Sequence record: PZ445467.1
DNA: 46,874 bases
DNA from: a phage
Strand: one strand, 5' to 3'
In this document: positions 5,083-45,045 of the stretch, in pieces
Layout: each line of letters begins with the position of its first letter
Numbering within the stretch: position 1 is the stretch's first letter
Translations under genes and position numbers: made by a program
Notes under the pieces: model-generated
Told to the model about the DNA's origin: nothing
The model's database searches: none
The model's input: the letters and a program-made list of their open reading frames with translations, nothing else

Positions 5083-5098
5083 GGGCTTGGTTTTATCT
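5069..5098 (+). terminator. rho-independent terminator
   Basis: stem AGCCCTC/GAGGGCT overlapping the stop codon, followed by TGGTTTTAT. Confidence 0.55.
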
Positions 5099-5104
5099 TA
5101 TCAG

Positions 5105-5182
5105 CATACACAGAACGAATATTATTATCGCATACACAGAACGAATATTATTATCGCATACACAGAACGAATATTATTATCG
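5105..5182. repeat. three perfect tandem copies of a 26-bp unit CATACACAGAACGAATATTATTATCG
   Basis: read directly: units at 5105-5130, 5131-5156, 5157-5182; intergenic between convergent genes. Confidence 0.9.
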
Positions 5183-5217
5183 CATAGCACAATATCTCTA
5201 CGACGCTGAATATTGTT

Positions 5218-7546: not shown

Positions 7547-8018
7547 ATACTGGCGACCACTGGCAATTATTATAATTGTTGTCTCTGGCGCGTTGTGGGC
7601 GCGTAGCGAAATCATCAGCTACGGCGACCAACGATACGCAGAAGGCAAATCCCAAGCAATCGCCGAACAGAAGGCCGCAGACGAACAAGAGGAGCAACGA
7701 CGCAATGCAGAACTGCAAAAGATTCAGGCTGACGCACAGCAAAGGATTGACGCTGCGCGCAATGATGCTGTCAATGCTGCTGCTAAGTCTGGCAGGTTGC
7801 AGCAACAGCTCGCAAATATCCGCAAGCAGCTCGTCGGATATTCCACCGCTGAGTCCATTGGCAATCCAGCCGCAGAAACCGGAGTTTTGCTTGGAGACGT
7901 GCTCGGCAAATCTGTCGAAAGAAATCGACAACTGGCAGATTATGCTGACAGGGCAAGAGAGGCAGGATTAGCGTGTGAGGCGCAGTATAATTCGCTGCGT
8001 AATAAAAAAGCCCCGTGA
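7527..8018 (+). CDS. Rz: i-spanin (Rz-like)
   Basis: N-terminal TM segment then Ala/Gln-rich coiled-coil region; GGAGG SD; follows endolysin. Confidence 0.65.
   Translation: MMSILAKYWRPLAIIIIVVSGALWARSEIISYGDQRYAEGKSQAIAEQKAADEQEEQRRNAELQKIQADAQQRIDAARNDAVNAAAKSGRLQQQLANIRKQLVGYSTAESIGNPAAETGVLLGDVLGKSVERNRQLADYADRAREAGLACEAQYNSLRNKKAP
7762..7971 (+). CDS. Rz1: o-spanin (Rz1-like lipoprotein) embedded in +1 frame of Rz
   Basis: MMLSMLLLSLAGC lipobox signal, Pro/Ser-rich 69 aa, wholly inside Rz. Confidence 0.55.
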   Translation: MMLSMLLLSLAGCSNSSQISASSSSDIPPLSPLAIQPQKPEFCLETCSANLSKEIDNWQIMLTGQERQD

Positions 8019-8036
8019 TGGGGCTTGTGTTTAATT
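8003..8036. terminator. bidirectional rho-independent terminator
   Basis: stem AAGCCCC/GGGGCTT flanked by A-run and T-rich tract between convergent genes. Confidence 0.6.
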
Positions 8037-8157
8037 GGTTTGTTAAGATTCTTCCCGCTGCTTCCACATCTGTTTCAGCTGGAAATAAGCATACGCTTCA
8101 TCACCATCTTTCGCATTGCGCTCCATTTGCTCACACCATGCCGATGGTTTTGGCGGC

Positions 8158-8463
8158 TCACTCTGCTGGCAATGTTGTTGGCTCATTAACAGATTCCTCA
8201 ACCGCAGATTCAACGATGCGCACCAGTGAGCACTCAAGATTCGGTGCATTGTAATTACCAGCCAGAAACAGAACACTGCCGGTGCTGATTAATACCTGCT
8301 TTGCGTTCGCCTGTGACAGATTCTGCACGATGAATTGCGCTGTTTCCGTGCCGATTTTTAGCACTGCGCTGCCGTCGCTGTTCAGTGATACCAGTTGTGC
8401 TGAAGTGTCGGTAATATTGGTGTAGCTCGCGTTTCGTTGCGCGATTGTTATGTCTGTGAACAT
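8158..8463 (-). CDS. hypothetical protein (101 aa)
   Basis: ATG preceded by AAGAGG. Confidence 0.5.
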   Translation of the reverse strand: MFTDITIAQRNASYTNITDTSAQLVSLNSDGSAVLKIGTETAQFIVQNLSQANAKQVLISTGSVLFLAGNYNAPNLECSLVRIVESAVEESVNEPTTLPAE

Positions 8464-18310: not shown

Positions 18311-18409
18311 TTATTGTTGTTTCTACGTCACTAACTATAAACGCCACATCAATCTACGTCAACAGGAATATGCTAAAATCATGCTAATCAAAAAACAGGA
18401 GATTTGAGC
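18311..18409. promoter_or_regulatory. divergent promoter region with two ATCTAC motif copies
   Basis: motifs at 18319-18331 and 18350-18363; TGCTAAAAT extended -10 at 18371-18379; AGGAG SD before ATG 18410. Confidence 0.5.
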
Positions 18410-23287: not shown

Positions 23288-23337
23288 GAATCTACATCAC
23301 CACCTCGCAGGTGTCAACACCACTGAGATGATATAAT
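23288..23337 (+). promoter_or_regulatory. promoter of tail chaperone/tape measure operon with ATCTAC motif
   Basis: motif 23288-23301; GTCAACACC element; extended -10 TGaTATAAT 23329-23337. Confidence 0.5.
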
Positions 23338-37494: not shown

Positions 37495-39432
37495 TCAAGC
37501 TGCTTCACTTTGTTCTCCTGCAAAATCTTTTCTATGGATTATGTCGCGACCTTTATCATTAATGCGATGAGTGATGCGTTTTGGCGCTTTAATCAATCCA
37601 GCATACATCATGAACTGCTTAGCATTCTGGCATTTCAGGATTTTCCCCGCCATTGACTTATCATCAAGGTGAGGAAAAATAGCCTTTGCCTTGAACATGT
37701 TTTTCATGTGAGTCGCACCGCCATATGGGTAGAAAACTTCGTTAGCCCAGCCTTCTTTGCCATCACAACGATTAATCCAGTAGCGATACAAAATACCTTC
37801 TCCATCCTTTGTTAGCTGGACTTTGAAATCAATAACATCAGCCCACTCATTATCGGTATACGCACGCTCATTCAGTGCCGCATTCGGGTCGCGCAACACG
37901 TGATCGCAATGCCGGCAATAGCGCGCCGTTGGGTCGTTTTTAGTGCCGCATCCATCATCAAAAATCCGTATTCCGTGCTTATCAAAACCGCAACGAATAT
38001 AACTGAAAAACTCCTCGCAGCGACCATCTGGCGACAATGCATCTTTGCCAATGCATCGACGCGCATATGGGCTGTTCATTGTTCCACATGTATGACACGG
38101 AACTTGTTCGCCACTGCGTTTTGAACGTTGCGCTTCAGCTTCTTCCAGAATTGGGTCTTCATATAGCTGACCAAGCTCAAACATCGTGCCTGAGAAATCA
38201 AGAACCAGATGGTTTTCTTTATGATACCCGGCGTCAATTTGGTCTTTCTTCAGCAGTCGCATTCCGCGACCAAGCAACTGAACAAGAAGGGTGAGCGACA
38301 TTATTTTTCGCAATATAACGCTTGTATCCCATAGCGGGATGTTTACGCCGGTCGTCAAGCAACCAATTTGGAAAACATATTTAATCTTGCCAGTGTATGC
38401 ATCCTTTAATGCCTTGCGTCTGGCTTTCTGTCCCATATCTTCGGTGACGATCGCATAACTTCCTTCAGGTAGGTATTTTGCCGCCTCCTGACAGTGCTTC
38501 TTGCCAGCGCATGTAATCAATACGCCGTTTCTGTTTTTTGTCAGCTCCATAACCTTGAGCATGATTTTCTGCGTGAGTGTTCCTTGCTCAAGGATTTCTT
38601 TCTGCATCTGCTTGAGTTGCTCGGTGGTAAATTCCTGAACTCCATCACTTCCTGACGCCTCAAATGCTGACAGGTCGTAATGCAGATCATCAATATCATG
38701 AAGACCAAAAATTGTAGGGACAAGAAAGCCATTATCAACAAGGTATTTGGTATCAATATTTATTATTTCATGCTTCCAGTAAGAACCCTTAATTGACTCA
38801 GTTCCACGAAATGGGCTGCCAGTGTAGCCAATAACAATGACATCGTGTCCGTATTTAGCTTTGCACCTACGGTTAAATTCGGTCATTATTACGCCGTACT
38901 GTGTGTCTGAATCTTCTCCAACAATATCCTCCCAGTTCACTTGATGGCACTCATCAACCAAAATATATCGTGGGCAAAAGTCTGAAAGTGCACACTTTGA
39001 GATAACATTGCCTGATTCATCCTTTATGTCGAAAAGTGAGTTTTTTATTGTTCTCTCCGTCCCAGCAATAAGCGGGTATGCCGTTGACTTTCTGCCAAGA
39101 GACGCGCTGAAAAGTGAGTTTTTAACACTCAGATTCCATAGCTCTTCCGCATCCTGCTCAATAATTTCCCCCTGTCTGGCAATAACAAGGCCTTCCCACC
39201 CCATATCCTGAAAGCGTCGCGCAATCATGGCAATCATAATGGTCTTTCCAGCACCTACAGATGCCGTCACAAAACTTGGCTTAGGGTCTTTGCCAAACTT
39301 GCGGATAACTTCAGCCGTCTTTTCATAAACCAGCCACTGATATGGTCGCGGCTCAATCTCACCCGTATGAACAACTGACCGCAATTTGTCTATATCCAAT
39401 TCAGCAATCATTGCGTCTATTTTATGCGTCAT
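37495..39432 (-). CDS. DExH-box superfamily II helicase (645 aa)
   Basis: Walker A ASVGAGKT; DECH box (VDECHQV); Cys-rich C-terminal region. Confidence 0.7.
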   Translation of the reverse strand: MTHKIDAMIAELDIDKLRSVVHTGEIEPRPYQWLVYEKTAEVIRKFGKDPKPSFVTASVGAGKTIMIAMIARRFQDMGWEGLVIARQGEIIEQDAEELWNLSVKNSLFSASLGRKSTAYPLIAGTERTIKNSLFDIKDESGNVISKCALSDFCPRYILVDECHQVNWEDIVGEDSDTQYGVIMTEFNRRCKAKYGHDVIVIGYTGSPFRGTESIKGSYWKHEIINIDTKYLVDNGFLVPTIFGLHDIDDLHYDLSAFEASGSDGVQEFTTEQLKQMQKEILEQGTLTQKIMLKVMELTKNRNGVLITCAGKKHCQEAAKYLPEGSYAIVTEDMGQKARRKALKDAYTGKIKYVFQIGCLTTGVNIPLWDTSVILRKIMSLTLLVQLLGRGMRLLKKDQIDAGYHKENHLVLDFSGTMFELGQLYEDPILEEAEAQRSKRSGEQVPCHTCGTMNSPYARRCIGKDALSPDGRCEEFFSYIRCGFDKHGIRIFDDGCGTKNDPTARYCRHCDHVLRDPNAALNERAYTDNEWADVIDFKVQLTKDGEGILYRYWINRCDGKEGWANEVFYPYGGATHMKNMFKAKAIFPHLDDKSMAGKILKCQNAKQFMMYAGLIKAPKRITHRINDKGRDIIHRKDFAGEQSEAA

Positions 39433-39507
39433 AGCTACTAACCTTTGTTGATGTTTCTACGTCAGTTAGCTTATACTCAATCTACACCAACAATCAAGGG
39501 TCAATTT
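39433..39507. promoter_or_regulatory. divergent promoter region (helicase leftward, primase rightward) with two ATCTAC motif copies
   Basis: TTGATG 39448-39453, TATACT 39472-39477; motifs 39453-39465 and 39478-39491. Confidence 0.5.
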
Positions 39508-40461
39508 ATGAGATATGACTGGAAGGAAATCGAGCCAAAAATGATCGGCAACTGGCAGGCTGCCATCATGTCTATCGTCAATGTGGATAGCAGAGTTTTC
39601 AATGGCAAGCACCAGCCATGCCCTCATTGCATGGGGGTTGACCGGTTCCGTTGGGATAATCACTTCGAAACAAAAGGCGATGGCGGCGCAATCTGCAATC
39701 AGTGCGGTTCCGGCAGCGGCATGAATTGGCTGATGAAACTCTCCGGAATGAGCTTTCCTGAAGCACTGGAGGCGCTTGGTGGATTCCTGAACATGCACCC
39801 GCGTGAAAAGCTGGAGGCAATCAGGAAAGAGCTACCGAAGATAAATCACAGCGATGACTTCATCACCGAGCAGGAAGTCGCAGCAATCATGGCTAAAACG
39901 ACTCGTGTCGCGATGAATGAGTGGACTTTGATAAATGGTATTGGTTGCGACGTTAACGTCACCAGAGGCAAATCTGGAGAACTTATTGCGGTTGAGATGA
40001 TGCGAGCTGACACAATGAAACTGTGCAACGTGGCATTCATTGGCATGGATGGTGATTCAATCAGAACGTTTTTCCGCGCAGGATACAACAAGGACTCAGC
40101 CATCAACGGCAAACTCACGCGCGGCGCGATAAGCCCAATCGGAGAAGACAACGGGAAGTTCATTTACCTGGTATCTGATTATGCCGATGCGTGGAAGTGC
40201 CATTACTTCACTGGCGCGCATGTCTGGTGCTGCTGGTCGCCGGAAAACATGTGGGAAGTAATGCGCTCTGTTAGCGATGAAACGAAGGCGAGGTTGCGCT
40301 GCATAGTTAATTATAAATTCGACGAACTGTGTGCAGCAGAAAACGCAGGGATTCCGGTGATGCTTCCTGATGATGCCGACACTATCAGGATGGCAAAGAG
40401 AATCAGGAGAAAGATTTATGACGCTGGCGAGTTGATAGAGAAAATGTCAGTTAGAAGATAA
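39508..40461 (+). CDS. putative DNA primase / Zn-ribbon replication protein (317 aa)
   Basis: CPHCMG...CNQCG zinc-binding pattern near N-terminus; AAGGG SD; divergent from helicase. Confidence 0.45.
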   Translation: MRYDWKEIEPKMIGNWQAAIMSIVNVDSRVFNGKHQPCPHCMGVDRFRWDNHFETKGDGGAICNQCGSGSGMNWLMKLSGMSFPEALEALGGFLNMHPREKLEAIRKELPKINHSDDFITEQEVAAIMAKTTRVAMNEWTLINGIGCDVNVTRGKSGELIAVEMMRADTMKLCNVAFIGMDGDSIRTFFRAGYNKDSAINGKLTRGAISPIGEDNGKFIYLVSDYADAWKCHYFTGAHVWCCWSPENMWEVMRSVSDETKARLRCIVNYKFDELCAAENAGIPVMLPDDADTIRMAKRIRRKIYDAGELIEKMSVRR

Positions 40462-40795: not shown

Positions 40796-41051
40796 TATTT
40801 CCCTCCAGAATCCAAACTGAATTACCAATACGACTGTTATTTAAATCCTTTGACACGCGGCCATCCTTACAAAGAGAAATCAGAACCTTCCGTAACTTCG
40901 CTGCTGTCCATTCATCATCAGGAAATTCATTCACCATTGATAGACGCAAACTCCACGTAGCCACTGAGAACTTACGAAAAATTCCAAGTTTCTCCTCCTC
41001 AATGGATTTTCTCTTTCTCATCACATATAAAACCTTATCCTTCACATCCAT
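40788..41051 (-). CDS. hypothetical protein (87 aa)
   Basis: ATG with AAGGAA/GAGGG upstream. Confidence 0.45.
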   Translation of the reverse strand: MDVKDKVLYVMRKRKSIEEEKLGIFRKFSVATWSLRLSMVNEFPDDEWTAAKLRKVLISLCKDGRVSKDLNNSRIGNSVWILEGNNG

Positions 41052-41061
41052 TTCCTTACCC

Positions 41062-41253
41062 TCACTTAATCATCATCTTTGAAATATCAACGTGACCAAC
41101 ACAAAATCTGTGCCAGTAATCATCAAGCATGTGGTAATTAGAGCGAATCCATACTTTGTTAATCCGGCTCCAGAAAAACCACGTCGAATAACCATGCGGC
41201 CTGAAATGCCATAAACCTTCTGAGCGACAAATTTCGCCTGATATTGTTCTCAT
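41062..41253 (-). CDS. hypothetical protein (63 aa)
   Basis: ATGA overlap with upstream gene stop. Confidence 0.4.
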   Translation of the reverse strand: MRTISGEICRSEGLWHFRPHGYSTWFFWSRINKVWIRSNYHMLDDYWHRFCVGHVDISKMMIK

Positions 41254-42806
41254 TTCAACCTCGGATTTATGTGAACAGTATTCCCGATAAATACGCAGTA
41301 ACCATCCTCTTCAAGTGATGGCAATACACTTGACCTGAGTCGGTCATAAATTTTAGGTATCCCTTTGAATGGTCGTACGTTTTTAAGTGAATCATAAAGC
41401 CACTTCACCGTTACGTTTGTTTTTCCTTTCTGAGCGGCAGAGCGTAGCTTTTCGGCAACAACATCAAATTCAGAACGCTCACCAGCATATCCATTTGATT
41501 CCACGGCGTCGGTGAATGTTTTTGTTAGTGCGTCATAAACACTGATGGCGCGACTAATTTCATTTTCACCGATAATCTTTGATTGCTTTCCTCCATCACA
41601 CCAGTTTTCAGCAGCGTGAAATATTGCTGCCAGACGTATTATTTGCTTATCAGCTTTACCCATCGCGCCACGAAGAAGGACGTGATCCCACTTACCGCCG
41701 GGAAGGAAGTTTTTCTCCCACTGATTTCGTAACAGGCCAATCATTCTTGCTGAGTCATTGTGAAGCGTCAGTTTTGTTTTTTCTGCTGACACAACATTAT
41801 GTATAAATCTTGCATATTCCGACCTCAAGCTATCTGGCATTGGCTTGCTTACAGGGCAATCATTAACCATGTCCCAGTGTTCGCGATAGCCAAGCATTGA
41901 TTGCTCTCGCAACATCAGGAAACGTTCAGAAAGACCGTTCCCCCTGTCGCCAGCGGCAAGAATGGCATCAATACTTTCATCCTGCGCAATCACACTTATG
42001 TTTCCAAGCACGTAACCAGATGAAACGCCACGACCAACACGAGCAGAACCAATGAATCCGCCATCCCAGCCCTTCAGGATGACTTCGGCGTTTGCCTTTC
42101 CACCTTCTTTTCCGTAAGAGAGGCCAAGACATGTGTTAAGGACGCTTGCCTCGTCACTTATCAGATTAAAAAAACCACCTTCATGAATGGCCTGATGCTG
42201 GACAGCCTCCGGAGTTGCGTCCGTCAGTGGATATGTGATCGTATAAAGCTCCTCCAGCTTCTCCTTTTCGCGAGCAATATCATCGCCGATTAGTGCCTTT
42301 GCATTCTGATTACTGGCCTCTTTGTATGCCTTCATCAACTCTTCAATGCGAAGATTTATTTTTATGATCTGCTTTTCCATCTTTTTGGAAAGGTTGTCAT
42401 ATTCAATCTTCACCGGATTCATGTGCATTGAGTTGATGGCAGTTTTCCCTGCTGATGGAGGCTGAGAAGTAACCACGTAAAGAGAAACTGGAAGCTCTGA
42501 ATGGTAATACTCAACGCTAAAGTTTCTCGTCATTGCGCTGGCAACGCACCCAAGTAAATGCATGAACGATGTATTTATTGGGAACTGAACAGCACGAGCT
42601 GCAGCGATTGCATAACGAGACAGCAAATCTGTTCTGTGCTCACTGGTCAGTTCTGTTTCTGAGTACGTTACATCACGCTCCTTACCTTCCTTGATATCCA
42701 GCCACATATTTGAGCTTGGTGTCATGCCATGATGGAAGGCGACGCGAGCAGGAGATACTTTCAATTCCCTTGCTTCGTTGAAGATATCTTGAGCTGTGAT
42801 CATCAT
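41250..42806 (-). CDS. replication-associated protein (518 aa; possible P-loop NTPase)
   Basis: large ORF heading the leftward replication module next to the origin-like region; SAGKT P-loop-like segment. Confidence 0.45.
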   Translation of the reverse strand: MMITAQDIFNEARELKVSPARVAFHHGMTPSSNMWLDIKEGKERDVTYSETELTSEHRTDLLSRYAIAAARAVQFPINTSFMHLLGCVASAMTRNFSVEYYHSELPVSLYVVTSQPPSAGKTAINSMHMNPVKIEYDNLSKKMEKQIIKINLRIEELMKAYKEASNQNAKALIGDDIAREKEKLEELYTITYPLTDATPEAVQHQAIHEGGFFNLISDEASVLNTCLGLSYGKEGGKANAEVILKGWDGGFIGSARVGRGVSSGYVLGNISVIAQDESIDAILAAGDRGNGLSERFLMLREQSMLGYREHWDMVNDCPVSKPMPDSLRSEYARFIHNVVSAEKTKLTLHNDSARMIGLLRNQWEKNFLPGGKWDHVLLRGAMGKADKQIIRLAAIFHAAENWCDGGKQSKIIGENEISRAISVYDALTKTFTDAVESNGYAGERSEFDVVAEKLRSAAQKGKTNVTVKWLYDSLKNVRPFKGIPKIYDRLRSSVLPSLEEDGYCVFIGNTVHINPRLK

Positions 42807-43042
42807 GAAATCCTTTTTACGTAAACCATATCTTTGTCAGGGTATCCAACCTTTGTTGAGAATTTCATGCCTTCATTCCTGCGCATGAAATAGTTTAATG
42901 CGTTCCTCAGGCTTGCAATACCTCCAAACCTCTTCGAGTCAATCATCACAGTCTCCCCTACTGAAACCGCCGACAACCCAGAAAGAGCTGCATTCTTTTT
43001 GCCATACTTATCAAGTTTCACAAAATCCTCCAACAGCAACAA
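42803..43042 (-). CDS. hypothetical protein (79 aa, TTG start)
   Basis: track ORF; no ATG near start and no SD; stop overlaps downstream start. Confidence 0.3.
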   Translation of the reverse strand: MLLLEDFVKLDKYGKKNAALSGLSAVSVGETVMIDSKRFGGIASLRNALNYFMRRNEGMKFSTKVGYPDKDMVYVKRIS

Positions 43043-43486
43043 ATTATGATTGAATCATATCATAAGTATTGAATCATGCAACATCAAATACGACTCACGT
43101 GGGTAACGTGGGGCAGCCGTGGGGAACATCACCTTCCCCACGAACTTTTACTCTAAGTATATGTAATATAATATAATTATTATTATTTGGGTTAATGGGT
43201 AATATTATTATTCATATTATAGATAGTAATTAACATAATATTAACAAATGGATTATTTGAATATATTTATAAGGGGATGGGTATGAAATCTGCCCCTTTT
43301 TACCCACGAAAAATAAAAACATTCAAATCAATAATTTACGATGAAAAACGTGGGGCAACCAACCTTCCCCACGACCTGCCCCACGAGCAAAAATTTACCC
43401 CACGGGCACGTTTTTAACGCATCCCTGTTGACGTAGAATCATCGTTGATGTAGATTGAACTCATCGAAACAAACGAGGGTGAAGAG
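43043..43486. promoter_or_regulatory. origin-like region: two clusters of CGTGGGG/CCCCACG heptamers flanking a ~155-bp AT-rich tract, plus divergent promoters
   Basis: heptamer copies between 43098-43142 and 43301-43407; AT-rich 43145-43300; TTGACG 43428-43433 and TAGATT 43451-43456; inverted motif copies 43429-43439, 43446-43457. Confidence 0.5.
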
Positions 43487-43672
43487 ATGAACAAAGAAAG
43501 CACGTACAGCATCGACCAGATGAAGTTGTTCAGCGATATATGCATGGCATTGTCACAACAGGTTCCAAGTCTACCTGCTGATATGCGCTCAAATGCCATC
43601 ATTGATGCGGCAAACATGATTTGTGAGGCATATGCTATGACTGAAGATGAATATAAGGCATCGAAGAAATGA
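43487..43672 (+). CDS. hypothetical protein (61 aa)
   Basis: ATG after GAGGGTGA. Confidence 0.5.
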   Translation: MNKESTYSIDQMKLFSDICMALSQQVPSLPADMRSNAIIDAANMICEAYAMTEDEYKASKK

Positions 43673-43764
43673 CAGGCGCATCATTCGAGCTTATCTCCAG
43701 TCTGGTTATCGTGGCATTCATCATTATCGCAGTGGCGGTTTCTAAATCAGGGTATAAGGAGTAA
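43669..43764 (+). CDS. small membrane peptide (31 aa)
   Basis: ATGA overlap; MTGASFELISSLVIVAFIIIAVAVSKSGYKE. Confidence 0.3.
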   Translation: MTGASFELISSLVIVAFIIIAVAVSKSGYKE

Positions 43765-43767
43765 CAA

Positions 43768-43950
43768 ATGGCAAAGACTATCTATCGTCGCGAGAAACTG
43801 GAGCCTGAACTCGGTCACGTTGGCGCGCAAAACTTTATGAGCAAGCAGGCACGCAATGCAATGGAATCTATACGCGTGAATCGCGTTGTGCGCGTGTTTA
43901 ATGGTGAAGGTAAGCGAAGAGTAATGGATGAACTGATTATCGTATTTTGA
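43768..43950 (+). CDS. hypothetical protein (60 aa)
   Basis: ATG 6 nt after AAGGAG. Confidence 0.5.
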   Translation: MAKTIYRREKLEPELGHVGAQNFMSKQARNAMESIRVNRVVRVFNGEGKRRVMDELIIVF

Positions 43951-43986
43951 CATCGATTCAGCAGGCTTATTTCTAATGGTGATGAT

Positions 43987-44220
43987 ATGGAAAAAGTAAA
44001 AACATACGAGTTCTGGTTTGTGCAGAACAAAATGTATGCAAGCAGGACAATCAAGAGAGTCAGCTGGTGGAATAAGTGGTTAATCCTCTCCGGCTGCATC
44101 GTGCTGGCAAAGTGCAAATTCAAAGCGATTGACATCACCGGTGAAGATGCACTCACAATCGCAAAGATTGAGTTTGAAGAAGATGGCTATTACGAAGAAA
44201 TTATGGGGGTTAGGGTATGA
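43987..44220 (+). CDS. hypothetical protein (77 aa)
   Basis: ATG start; one hydrophobic segment. Confidence 0.45.
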   Translation: MEKVKTYEFWFVQNKMYASRTIKRVSWWNKWLILSGCIVLAKCKFKAIDITGEDALTIAKIEFEEDGYYEEIMGVRV

Positions 44221-44495
44221 GTGAAGAATCACGCGGAACAGTAAAAGCAAAAACATACTCAGTACCGAGAAGCGCAATTCCGCATCCTCCTGATGGTGAT
44301 GGATATTACGTGACTGTTGTTGAGATTGCTGACTACATGGCCTGCCTCAACAGAATCACAGAAATGAGCGTCGAAAACTATCACATGAAGAATCGCATTG
44401 CAGAGCTTGAGTCTGCATTAAATCGCCATTATGAGTTACCTGACGTTTATGATATGGCAGTAAAGCAATTCGAAAGCCTGGCTAAAAGTGAATAG
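44217..44495 (+). CDS. hypothetical protein (92 aa)
   Basis: ATGA overlap with previous gene. Confidence 0.45.
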   Translation: MSEESRGTVKAKTYSVPRSAIPHPPDGDGYYVTVVEIADYMACLNRITEMSVENYHMKNRIAELESALNRHYELPDVYDMAVKQFESLAKSE

Positions 44496-44558
44496 CTACC
44501 CGTTCATATTAATTATCAGTGCGCTCTATGTGGCGCACGCTTTAGTGGAGATGTATGG

Positions 44559-44945
44559 ATGAGCAATAGATATATTTATCACTACAACGCAATATCTGTG
44601 GGCGGCGCGTCATCAGTGGCTGGCATCGCTCAGTTGACATTCAGAATTAAATCGCAAGAAGATGTCGAGATGCTGAAGAGTTTGATTGGCCGTGACGGTT
44701 TCACAGCAGTAGCAATCGCATCTCTTTCATATCTCTGGCGAGAGAATGATGACGAAGGGTATGACGCAACAAAATTCGACCAGGCGTTTTTGATTAACAA
44801 ATTCTACGAGCGTTATCCGCTTCCTGAATTTAAGAGTGATTCAGAGCGAGCAGAGGCACTTGGTTACTTCATGACTGGTGCAGAATTACAGCGACTTGGA
44901 AAGTTTATCGAATACAACGATGAGGATGATAGTGATGATTACTAA
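44559..44945 (+). CDS. hypothetical protein (128 aa) with acidic C-terminus
   Basis: ATG after GGAG. Confidence 0.5.
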   Translation: MSNRYIYHYNAISVGGASSVAGIAQLTFRIKSQEDVEMLKSLIGRDGFTAVAIASLSYLWRENDDEGYDATKFDQAFLINKFYERYPLPEFKSDSERAEALGYFMTGAELQRLGKFIEYNDEDDSDDY

Positions 44946-45045
44946 ACAACAACGACGCCGCTACACCACTGGCGCTAAAATCTTCCTTACTGTTTATGTG
45001 CTGGCACTGGTGGCGGCTATTGCAGGAGTTGTGCATTATGTTTAA
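44935..45045 (+). CDS. small membrane peptide (36 aa)
   Basis: MITKQQRRRYTTGAKIFLTVYVLALVAAIAGVVHYV; overlaps both neighbours; speculative. Confidence 0.25.
   Translation: MITKQQRRRYTTGAKIFLTVYVLALVAAIAGVVHYV

Follow-up and report, generated by a model that had tools for sequence, protein, structure and literature searches.

To our knowledge, no replication origin has been mapped in the Skatevirus/Macdonaldcampvirus/Roufvirus group of phages, or in any phage relying on a DUF3987/MCM-like helicase, and one intergenic locus in a member genome raises the question of whether it is such an origin. The window analysed here, the whole of sequence record PZ445467.1 (46,874 bp), is a complete lytic siphophage genome of the Skatevirus/Macdonaldcampvirus-like type. 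Between its leftward replication genes and a rightward operon lies a module (43098-43404) in which short repeats stand on both sides of an A+T-rich core, a location that had been correctly described in a first-pass annotation of this DNA, together with the proposal of an origin. The feature is real and unique in the genome, and its architecture is deeply conserved. Taken together, the sequence comparisons lean towards a replication origin of the self-loading-helicase type, which would double as the control region of divergent early promoters.

Short inverted repeats surround the least stable DNA of the genome

The heptamer CGTGGGG occurs as seven exact copies on the two strands of the genome, all inside 43107-43404 and nowhere else in the 46,874 bp, a count never reached in 100 shuffles (shuffle mean 2.5). 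Two one-mismatch copies, CGTGGGT at 43098-43104 on the plus strand and at 43302-43308 on the minus strand, bring the total to nine, spanning 43098-43404, in line with the two clusters and both orientations reported in the first-pass annotation. The left cluster (43098-43142) holds four copies, three pointing rightward and the last leftward, and the right cluster (43302-43404) holds five, one pointing leftward and, after a gap, one rightward followed by three leftward. The pentamer TGGGG/CCCCA is found seven times in 320 bp at the site, whereas no other stretch of that length has more than two copies.

The repeat search revealed that copies in each cluster form a 25-bp palindrome, CGTGGGG-N11-CCCCACG. 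The left palindrome (43118-43142, both strands) can be written CGTGGGGAA-N7-TTCCCCACG, equivalent to TGGGG-N11-CCCCA, and its centre is 231 bp from that of the right palindrome (43349-43373, both strands). The left cluster further contains two direct repeats on the plus strand (43098-43113), CGTGGGT at 43098-43104 and CGTGGGG at 43107-43113, spaced 9 and 11 bp to their neighbours. The right cluster contains the inverted degenerate repeat ACCCACG (43302-43308, minus strand), complementary to 43098-43106, and two inverted CCCCACG repeats at 43379-43385 and 43398-43404 (43379-43404, minus strand).

The A+T-rich core between the clusters (43143-43300) is a candidate DNA-unwinding element. Its A+T content reaches 80.7% over 150 bp, matching the earlier estimate of about 80%, and this value is the genome maximum, with a runner-up of 70.7%. 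The least stable 100-bp window of the genome also lies inside the core, with a nearest-neighbour free energy (dG) of -97.8 against a mean of -138.5 (standard deviation 7.1) and a next-lowest value of -116.9. The coincidence of exact repeats, A+T maximum and least stable tract at one place supports an origin. Conserved boxes in the core comprise CTAAGTATATGTAATATAAT (43153-43172), GGGTTAATGGGTAAT (43189-43203), the invariant TATTATTATTCATATTATAG (43203-43222), GGGGATGGGTAT (43273-43284) and GCCCC (43292-43296), of which GGGTTAATGGGTAAT, GGGGATGGGTAT and GCCCC are further degenerate copies of the repeat.

The interval 43040-43480 contains a single one-mismatch DnaA box and one match to the IHF consensus, the latter kept in the E. 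coli/Salmonella subgroup only. The DnaA-like sequence, TTATTCATA (43208-43216), is one mismatch off the DnaA-box consensus TTATNCACA and falls in a stretch of 20 bp that does not vary across the 23 relatives described below; with 53 single-mismatch boxes genome-wide, it may be present by chance.

The geometry of the module is conserved in close relatives

A 4-kb query around the site (41000-45000) aligned over 83% of its length, at 99.5% identity, with Escherichia phage SandraMuster_Bas78 (Bas78), which the BASEL paper put in the Skatevirus cluster, beside Roufvirus (PMC11990801). Against the Salmonella Typhi typing phage Vi II-E1 (genus Macdonaldcampvirus), identity is about 93%. The Vi II-E1 record (AM491472) carries the same two 25-bp palindromes at homologous positions, labelled 'repeat of sequence GTGGGGCAACCAACCTGCCCCACGA' with no function stated. 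Comparison of the module with plasmids and complete E. coli genomes gave no match.

Through the helicase, 29 loci were retrieved, and 23 distinct intergenic sequences among them were aligned, the helicases of this set being either 99-100% identical (E. coli and Salmonella phages) or about 87% identical (Roufvirus-type Klebsiella, Aeromonas and Vibrio records). The invariant islands of the alignment comprise the TGGGG/CCCCA cores, several blocks of the A+T core, including TATTATTATTCATATTATAG, and the rightward promoter TTGACG-17-TAGATT/TATAGT. The G-rich cores of the two left direct repeats are kept in the 23 aligned relatives, and the two inverted repeats of 43379-43404 are likewise kept in relatives. 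Bases outside the pentamer are variable, with CGTGGGG, TTGGGG and CTGGGG all found; the heptamer taken as the repeat unit in the first-pass annotation is thus present in the window, but the conserved unit is the pentamer TGGGG (TGGGG[C/A]A).

Spacing is conserved where sequence is not. The spacer of the left palindrome is 11 bp long in 23 of 23 relatives, with free sequence, and that of the right palindrome is 10-11 bp. The innermost arm pair of the left palindrome covaries, being complementary in 19 of the 23 (A.T in nine, C.G in ten). The palindrome centres are 230.5-232 bp apart in 17 of 24 sequences and 222-222.5 bp apart in seven of 24, two distance classes (231 and 222 bp) that correspond to about 22 and about 21 helical turns and differ by about one turn. 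In contig L041, whose helicase is 62% identical and whose intervening sequence is largely different, the distance is still 230.5 bp. Such a pattern, with distances fixed and bases free to vary, is expected where protein and DNA form an assembly. On the comparative evidence, the module is conserved and constrained in its geometry, stays linked to the gene of the replicative helicase and is predicted to bind protein.

Distant phages share the layout and use other words

The layout, an A+T core with direct repeats on one flank and inverted repeats on the other, is kept in more distant phages, in which the repeated word differs by lineage. With a helicase of 62% identity the word reads TGGGGT[A/G], and in Vibrio phages (helicase 23-26% identical) it reads CGTGTCAT, GTGTAAT or TGCGAGTAA. 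Vibrio myophage K374 (OZ196353; helicase 26% identical) has three direct copies of CGTGTCAT and a partial inverted copy, then an A+T tract and then more copies. K396 harbors ATTACAC[A/G][G/C] about ten times, among them a perfect palindrome, ATTACACGCGTGTAAT, and copies in inverted orientation on the far side, and ZQ26 uses the word TGCGAGTAA with an inverted copy past the A+T tract. In Pectobacterium phage Ymer (helicase 49% identical), TGGGG clusters appear on both sides of an A+T tract after the record ends are joined. Three different words among phages of one host genus, Vibrio, imply that the binder is phage-encoded, and a host factor as binder was rejected on this ground. The boxes TAAGT[A/G]TATG and GGGGAT recur in the window family and in both modules found in K374 (see below), and the TAAGT box also occurs in ZQ26; because these boxes recur in distant phages, the core has polarity and sequence-specific content.

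The link to the helicase is also kept in gene order. In the distant phages, the intergenic module separates a small gene and the DUF3987 helicase gene from small genes that lead toward the small terminase; the arrangement differs in Ymer, in which six small genes lie between the module and the helicase operon. Across three gene orders, the module adjoins the helicase gene or operon, and mostly it heads the operon. A metagenomic contig (L042; ENA contig k141_34288, 4600-4935; helicase 42% identical) has its TGGGG/A+T module directly downstream of the helicase terminator, between co-directional genes and with a primase-helicase gene order, and has the AGTAGTAGT motif in common with the window-family core. 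In the T1-like phages Tls, RAD2 and Rogue1, the helicase (35-39% identical) is encoded inside a long co-directional operon, and no module was found within 2.4-3 kb on either side of the helicase gene.

The adjacent helicase is a candidate binder

The module starts about 290 bp upstream of the start codon of a gene (41250-42806, minus strand) for a 518-residue DUF3987 / MCM-like replicative helicase of superfamily 6 (SF6) with a C-terminal winged helix, a candidate self-loading initiator. The AlphaFold2 model of this protein (pLDDT 90.2, pTM 0.86) contains an AAA+ core, a short N-terminal two-helix unit and the C-terminal winged helix, in agreement with the assignment of DUF3987 to the SF6/MCM-like replicative helicases with a C-terminal winged helix (PMC4889955), and helicase activity has been demonstrated for a DUF3987 protein (PMC11724360). 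A sequence search of the PDB with the helicase returned nothing useful. The adjacent helicase, acting via its winged helix, would be the most economical candidate binder of the repeats, and the 645-residue superfamily 2 (SF2) helicase with zinc ribbons (37495-39432, minus strand) is a second candidate.

Between the module and the helicase gene, a small open reading frame (ORF) of 72-79 codons (42803-43042, minus strand) is translationally coupled to the helicase and forms a variable slot. In the window and in loci L003-L029, this slot is occupied by three unrelated alleles next to the same TGGGG repeats, namely the 79-residue window type, a 90-residue type (as in Vi II-E1) that looks by eye like an AP2-type DNA-binding domain, and a type of 70-77 residues; the small protein was rejected as the repeat binder for this reason. 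The slot proteins of K374, K396 and L041 end in a similar V-x-V-K-R motif. Searches of the small neighbouring proteins and of the helicase termini against Pfam and PHROG yielded no DNA-binding assignment, the window-type slot protein matching neither database, and the first rightward gene is mosaic among relatives.

Promoters around the module and a transcriptional alternative

In most genomes examined, the module sits at a divergent promoter hub. A promoter scan of the window placed a putative sigma-70 promoter, P_L (TTGATG-17-TATGAT; 43059-43087, minus strand), ahead of the small ORF and helicase operon, and by eye this promoter is kept in relatives with the same left-hand gene. On the other side, a predicted early promoter, P_R (TTGACG-17-TAGATT; 43428-43456, plus strand), precedes the rightward operon from 43487 and is present in 22 of 23 relatives. 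The core itself contains a leftward promoter-like element, TTAATA-17-TATAAT (43216-43244, minus strand; 10/12 match), at the same alignment position in 23 of 23 relatives, which possibly yields an origin-activating or primer transcript, or possibly reflects chance in A+T-rich DNA.

The 45-bp P_R cassette (43426-43470) recurs at 86-100% identity in more than 100 otherwise unrelated phage records of Salmonella, Shigella and E. coli. In the window genome, two more P_R-type promoters, TTGACG-17-TATAGT (18334-18362, minus strand) and TTGACA-17-TAGATT (23289-23317, minus strand), head other leftward gene blocks, the latter being followed by a P_R-like leader (tcatcgaaac). Neither of these two promoters is accompanied by a TGGGG cluster, and the repeats are therefore not a general early-promoter feature.

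An alternative scenario is that the module serves transcription control only, with a phage regulator on the TGGGG sites looping or wrapping the 231-bp segment, whereby P_L, P_R and the core promoter-like elements would be activated, repressed or timed; the A+T core would then be promoter or UP-element DNA and not an unwinding element. This scenario is favored by a strict helical register with P_R, whose -35 element is 66-67.5 bp from the right palindrome centre across relatives and 87.5 bp, two turns more, in L041. The site centres thereby fall near -62, -81 and -101 of P_R, and near -49 to -87 of P_L, positions estimated from the predicted promoters. The whole-turn spacing of the palindromes, familiar from repression loops, the persistence of the core TTAATA-17-TATAAT element and the position at a promoter hub point in the same direction. 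However, the sites lie upstream of the -35 elements and overlap neither the -35 nor the -10 of P_L or P_R, and the other P_R-type promoters of the genome lack TGGGG sites. The L042 module, placed right after a helicase terminator between co-directional genes, does not fit a hub, no regulator of the helix-turn-helix type was detected next to the module, where the flanking small genes are interchangeable, and a pure operator leaves unexplained why the least stable 100 bp should lie exactly between the clusters. A purely transcriptional role is thus rather unlikely, although it carries real weight.

Several observations weigh against an origin. The fixed spacing to P_R is a transcription-factor-like arrangement. 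Furthermore, K374 (L037) contains a second, paralogous module (7924-8260) at a divergent non-replication junction upstream of the endolysin gene, with CGTGTCAT/ATTACACGG-type repeats, TAAGT and GGGGAT boxes and 65% identity over 160 bp of core, and this site holds the most A+T-rich tract of the K374 genome. The P_R register and this second module indicate that the module may have a transcriptional role, alone or in addition to replication. Across the 23 aligned intergenic sequences, the A+T core is kept in sequence, beyond mere composition, and a scan of 43040-43480 for host-factor sites found no DnaA-box cluster and no GATC. As regards the helicase as binder, its winged-helix sequence is also well conserved in the T1-like phages, which are module-less near the helicase gene, and thus offers no obvious specificity determinant; the helicases of the Vibrio phages are without the N-terminal 55 residues; and the outer repeat bases (CG versus other) show no covariation with helicase sequence. 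A GC-skew check, suggested in the first-pass annotation, did find a minimum at 42-43 kb, but this minimum coincides with the switch in transcription direction and is uninformative as an origin sign, because skew follows gene orientation.

For the origin reading as first put forward, layout, setting, conserved helicase linkage and likeness to the origins of staphylococcal pathogenicity islands (SaPIs) speak in favor, and the P_R register and the second K374 copy leave a role in transcription. By analogy with other viral origins, a dual role in replication and transcription is likely.

Record ends inside the core and a packaging alternative

At least six independent records begin or end at scattered positions in the A+T core (window equivalents about 43143-43243), including MT682064 (KpV2811), MK599416 (Akira), NC_071150 (ZCKP8), OP481875 (ZC2), OP748252 (Ymer) and the IMG/VR contig L025. 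These ends are probably assembly breaks in poorly covered 80% A+T DNA, rather than real physical ends.

Read as physical ends, they would make the module a pac site, with both clusters bound by the small terminase and the A+T core taking the first headful cut, much as hexamer clusters flank the cut region of P1 pac. By a rough estimate, far fewer record ends would be expected in the core by chance, and the module lies upstream of the operon leading to terS and terL in every genome examined, directly upstream of terS in Ymer. However, the ends are spread over about 100 bp, K374 would require two pac sites, the module is 2.9 kb from the putative terS in the window genome, and the records of Vi II-E1 and STGO-35-1 start near the putative terS gene, away from the module. 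A tract of 80% A+T may also be under-covered by a Nextera-type library method. The headful packaging of this group, including relatives of the window phage (PMC8954984), is consistent with a pac site, but the ZC2 record is an unedited Nextera/SPAdes contig (PMC10158348), so the record ends could be assembly breaks, and PhageTerm detected no defined termini in a relative (PMC11769527). We consider a pac site improbable.

Hairpins and small open reading frames at the module

The palindromes and the ORFs annotated over them also allow a reading at the RNA or coding level, in which the palindromes act as intrinsic terminators, insulators or part of a small RNA, or the 44/46-codon ORF encodes a real basic protein. 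Each palindrome is scored as a terminator-like hairpin with a short T run behind it, and an RNAalifold consensus fold recovers both hairpins (and these two palindromes only). However, the T runs are not conserved, being missing in about half of the relatives, and the hairpins are equally good on both strands, for which reasons an intrinsic terminator was rejected. This reading also leaves the extra non-palindromic repeat copies unexplained, the palindrome of K396 is loopless, the spacer in Ymer is 18 bp, and an Rfam scan of 42700-43800 returned nothing relevant.

The ORF, which the first-pass annotation had offered as an alternative to the origin, exists as 44 codons from 43283 or 46 codons from 43277 (43277-43417, plus strand), the latter form being annotated in Bas78, but it was rejected as a gene. 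Its length ranges over 10-52 codons, with the start lost or the frame broken or stopped early; in close relatives, one of them with an identical helicase, it is cut to 10-20 codons or startless, and it has no match in PHROG. Altogether, an RNA- or coding-level function of the module is very improbable. In Bas78, two ORFs are annotated across the repeat clusters, Bas78_0083 (window 43069-43176, plus strand) and Bas78_0084 (43277-43417, plus strand), and the Bas78_0083-type ORF on the left cluster is probably spurious. Tiny ORFs are likewise annotated over the modules of K374, K396 and Ymer.

Neighbouring genes and other features of the genome

The leftward replication block (33.7-43.0 kb) encodes a single-stranded DNA-binding protein (SSB), an AAA_24 ATPase, a PD-(D/E)XK exonuclease, the 645-residue SF2 helicase, a zinc-ribbon primase and the 518-residue DUF3987 helicase. 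Rightward of the site follow small early genes, an HNH endonuclease gene and a putative small terminase gene, with the large terminase gene across the record junction. Relatives encode a primase and two helicases and no DNA polymerase (PMC11769527). Within the leftward replication block, only the primase gene (39445-40461) lies on the plus strand. Should the TTG listed at 39445 be its true start, 12 bp would separate it from the start of the SF2 helicase gene, and the promoters of the two genes would each fall in the coding sequence of the other (39432-39445). Elsewhere in the genome, the convergent intergenic region after a head-morphogenesis gene contains a near-perfect tandem repeat of 26 bp x 3.5 (TTATCGCATACACAGAACGAATATTA, 5098-5191), of which Bas78 has only about 1.5 copies; the copy number thus differs between near-identical phages.

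Proposed mechanism and implications

The data show the repeats, their geometry, the low stability of the core, a layout kept with words that differ by lineage, and the helicase fold; from these we infer that a protein binds, which protein this is, that the core melts and that the helicase loads. In the proposed mechanism, a phage-encoded protein would bind the TGGGG repeats, whose orientation differs between the flanks of the A+T core, and the two palindromes, an integral number of turns (about 22) apart, would place two protein assemblies flanking the core. The core, as the least stable duplex of the genome, would then melt, allowing the helicase to load, the phage primase to prime and host DNA polymerase III to extend, and the departing forks would be co-directional with transcription on both sides. 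The same complex probably also modulates early transcription, because the right sites are in register with P_R and the left sites lie just upstream of P_L.

More broadly, and only tentatively, phages with DUF3987 helicases may use an MCM-type origin that is independent of the origin recognition complex (ORC). At such an origin, the helicase winged helix would read iterons ranging from pentamers to nonamers, two rings would assemble about 22 turns apart, flanking an unwinding element conserved in sequence, and would time the divergent early promoters, and module and word would co-evolve with the lineage across siphoviruses and myoviruses of enterobacteria and vibrios. If so, bacterial viruses would have their own counterpart of MCM double-hexamer loading.

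The repeats themselves had already been flagged in the Vi II-E1 record; the pentamer core, the strict spacing rules, the change of word from lineage to lineage among siphoviruses and myoviruses, the association with an MCM-like helicase and the rejection of the ORF are new here. The group includes Salmonella Typhi typing phages and phages studied as candidates for Klebsiella therapy, and origin-based interference with such phages could take the module as a candidate target. The 310-bp candidate opens to testing the questions of MCM-type loading without ORC or DnaA, of a helicase as its own initiator and of replication-transcription coupling, with the TGGGG cores, the 11-bp spacer and the 231-bp phasing as mutational targets. 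In addition, the module explains spurious small ORFs in many records and may explain assembly breaks at this spot.

Comparison with known origins

Iterons of plasmids are tandem repeats of 17-22 bp that lie on one side of the unwinding element together with DnaA boxes, and the lambda ori lies inside gene O. The window shares with iteron plasmids the presence of initiator-site repeats beside an A+T unwinding element, and in these plasmids inverted repeats can autoregulate the rep promoter. In contrast to iteron plasmids and phage lambda (reviewed in PMC4980987), the repeats of the window are 5-9 bp long and symmetric around the core, and there is no DnaA-box cluster. No Rep_3-type or O-type protein was found among the neighbouring window proteins scanned. 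With units of 5-9 bp, a single one-mismatch DnaA box and no Rep_3/O-type initiator, an origin of the iteron-plasmid or lambda type was rejected.

In archaeal oriC, inverted origin recognition box (ORB) elements flank a DNA-unwinding element beside cdc6/orc1, and the helicase is MCM. The window resembles this arrangement in its inverted G-containing boxes around an A+T unwinding element near a replication gene and in its MCM-type helicase. However, the archaeal initiator is Orc1/Cdc6, of which no homologue (Orc or Cdc6) was seen among the window proteins scanned, and ORB elements are longer (22-35 bp).

The core origin of SV40 with its large T antigen, and the papillomavirus E1 system, combine inverted pentanucleotide repeats with an A+T tract at a point from which early and late promoters diverge. 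As helicases that are their own initiators, T antigen and E1 form double hexamers, and the same sites autoregulate early transcription. These are superfamily 3 helicases with another origin-binding domain, and the SV40 core spans about 64 bp, compared with about 310 bp for the module, making the resemblance an analogy with no homology.

The closest parallel is offered by the SaPIs, whose origins have six to twelve penta- or hexanucleotide iterons beside rep, shared about equally between the flanks of a central A+T region, with two or more iterons per flank in opposed orientation. A self-loading helicase recognizes these iterons through its winged helix and presumably loads a hexamer on either flank (PMC9371898). 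The likeness to SaPI ori/Rep extends to the number and shortness of the iterons (6-12 in SaPIs; seven exact and two one-mismatch copies with a pentamer core in the window), to the central A+T region with iterons split about evenly and in opposite orientation on its two sides, and to the position of the origin beside a helicase gene whose product has a C-terminal winged helix and no known separate loader. The two systems differ in that the window module lies upstream of the helicase operon, with a small ORF between and divergent promoters, whereas the SaPI ori lies immediately downstream of rep; in addition, the window has a 25-bp fixed-spacer palindrome on each side, and its helicase appears to belong to another lineage. 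Judged by its sequence, the window displays every sequence-level feature of the SaPI Rep/ori design.

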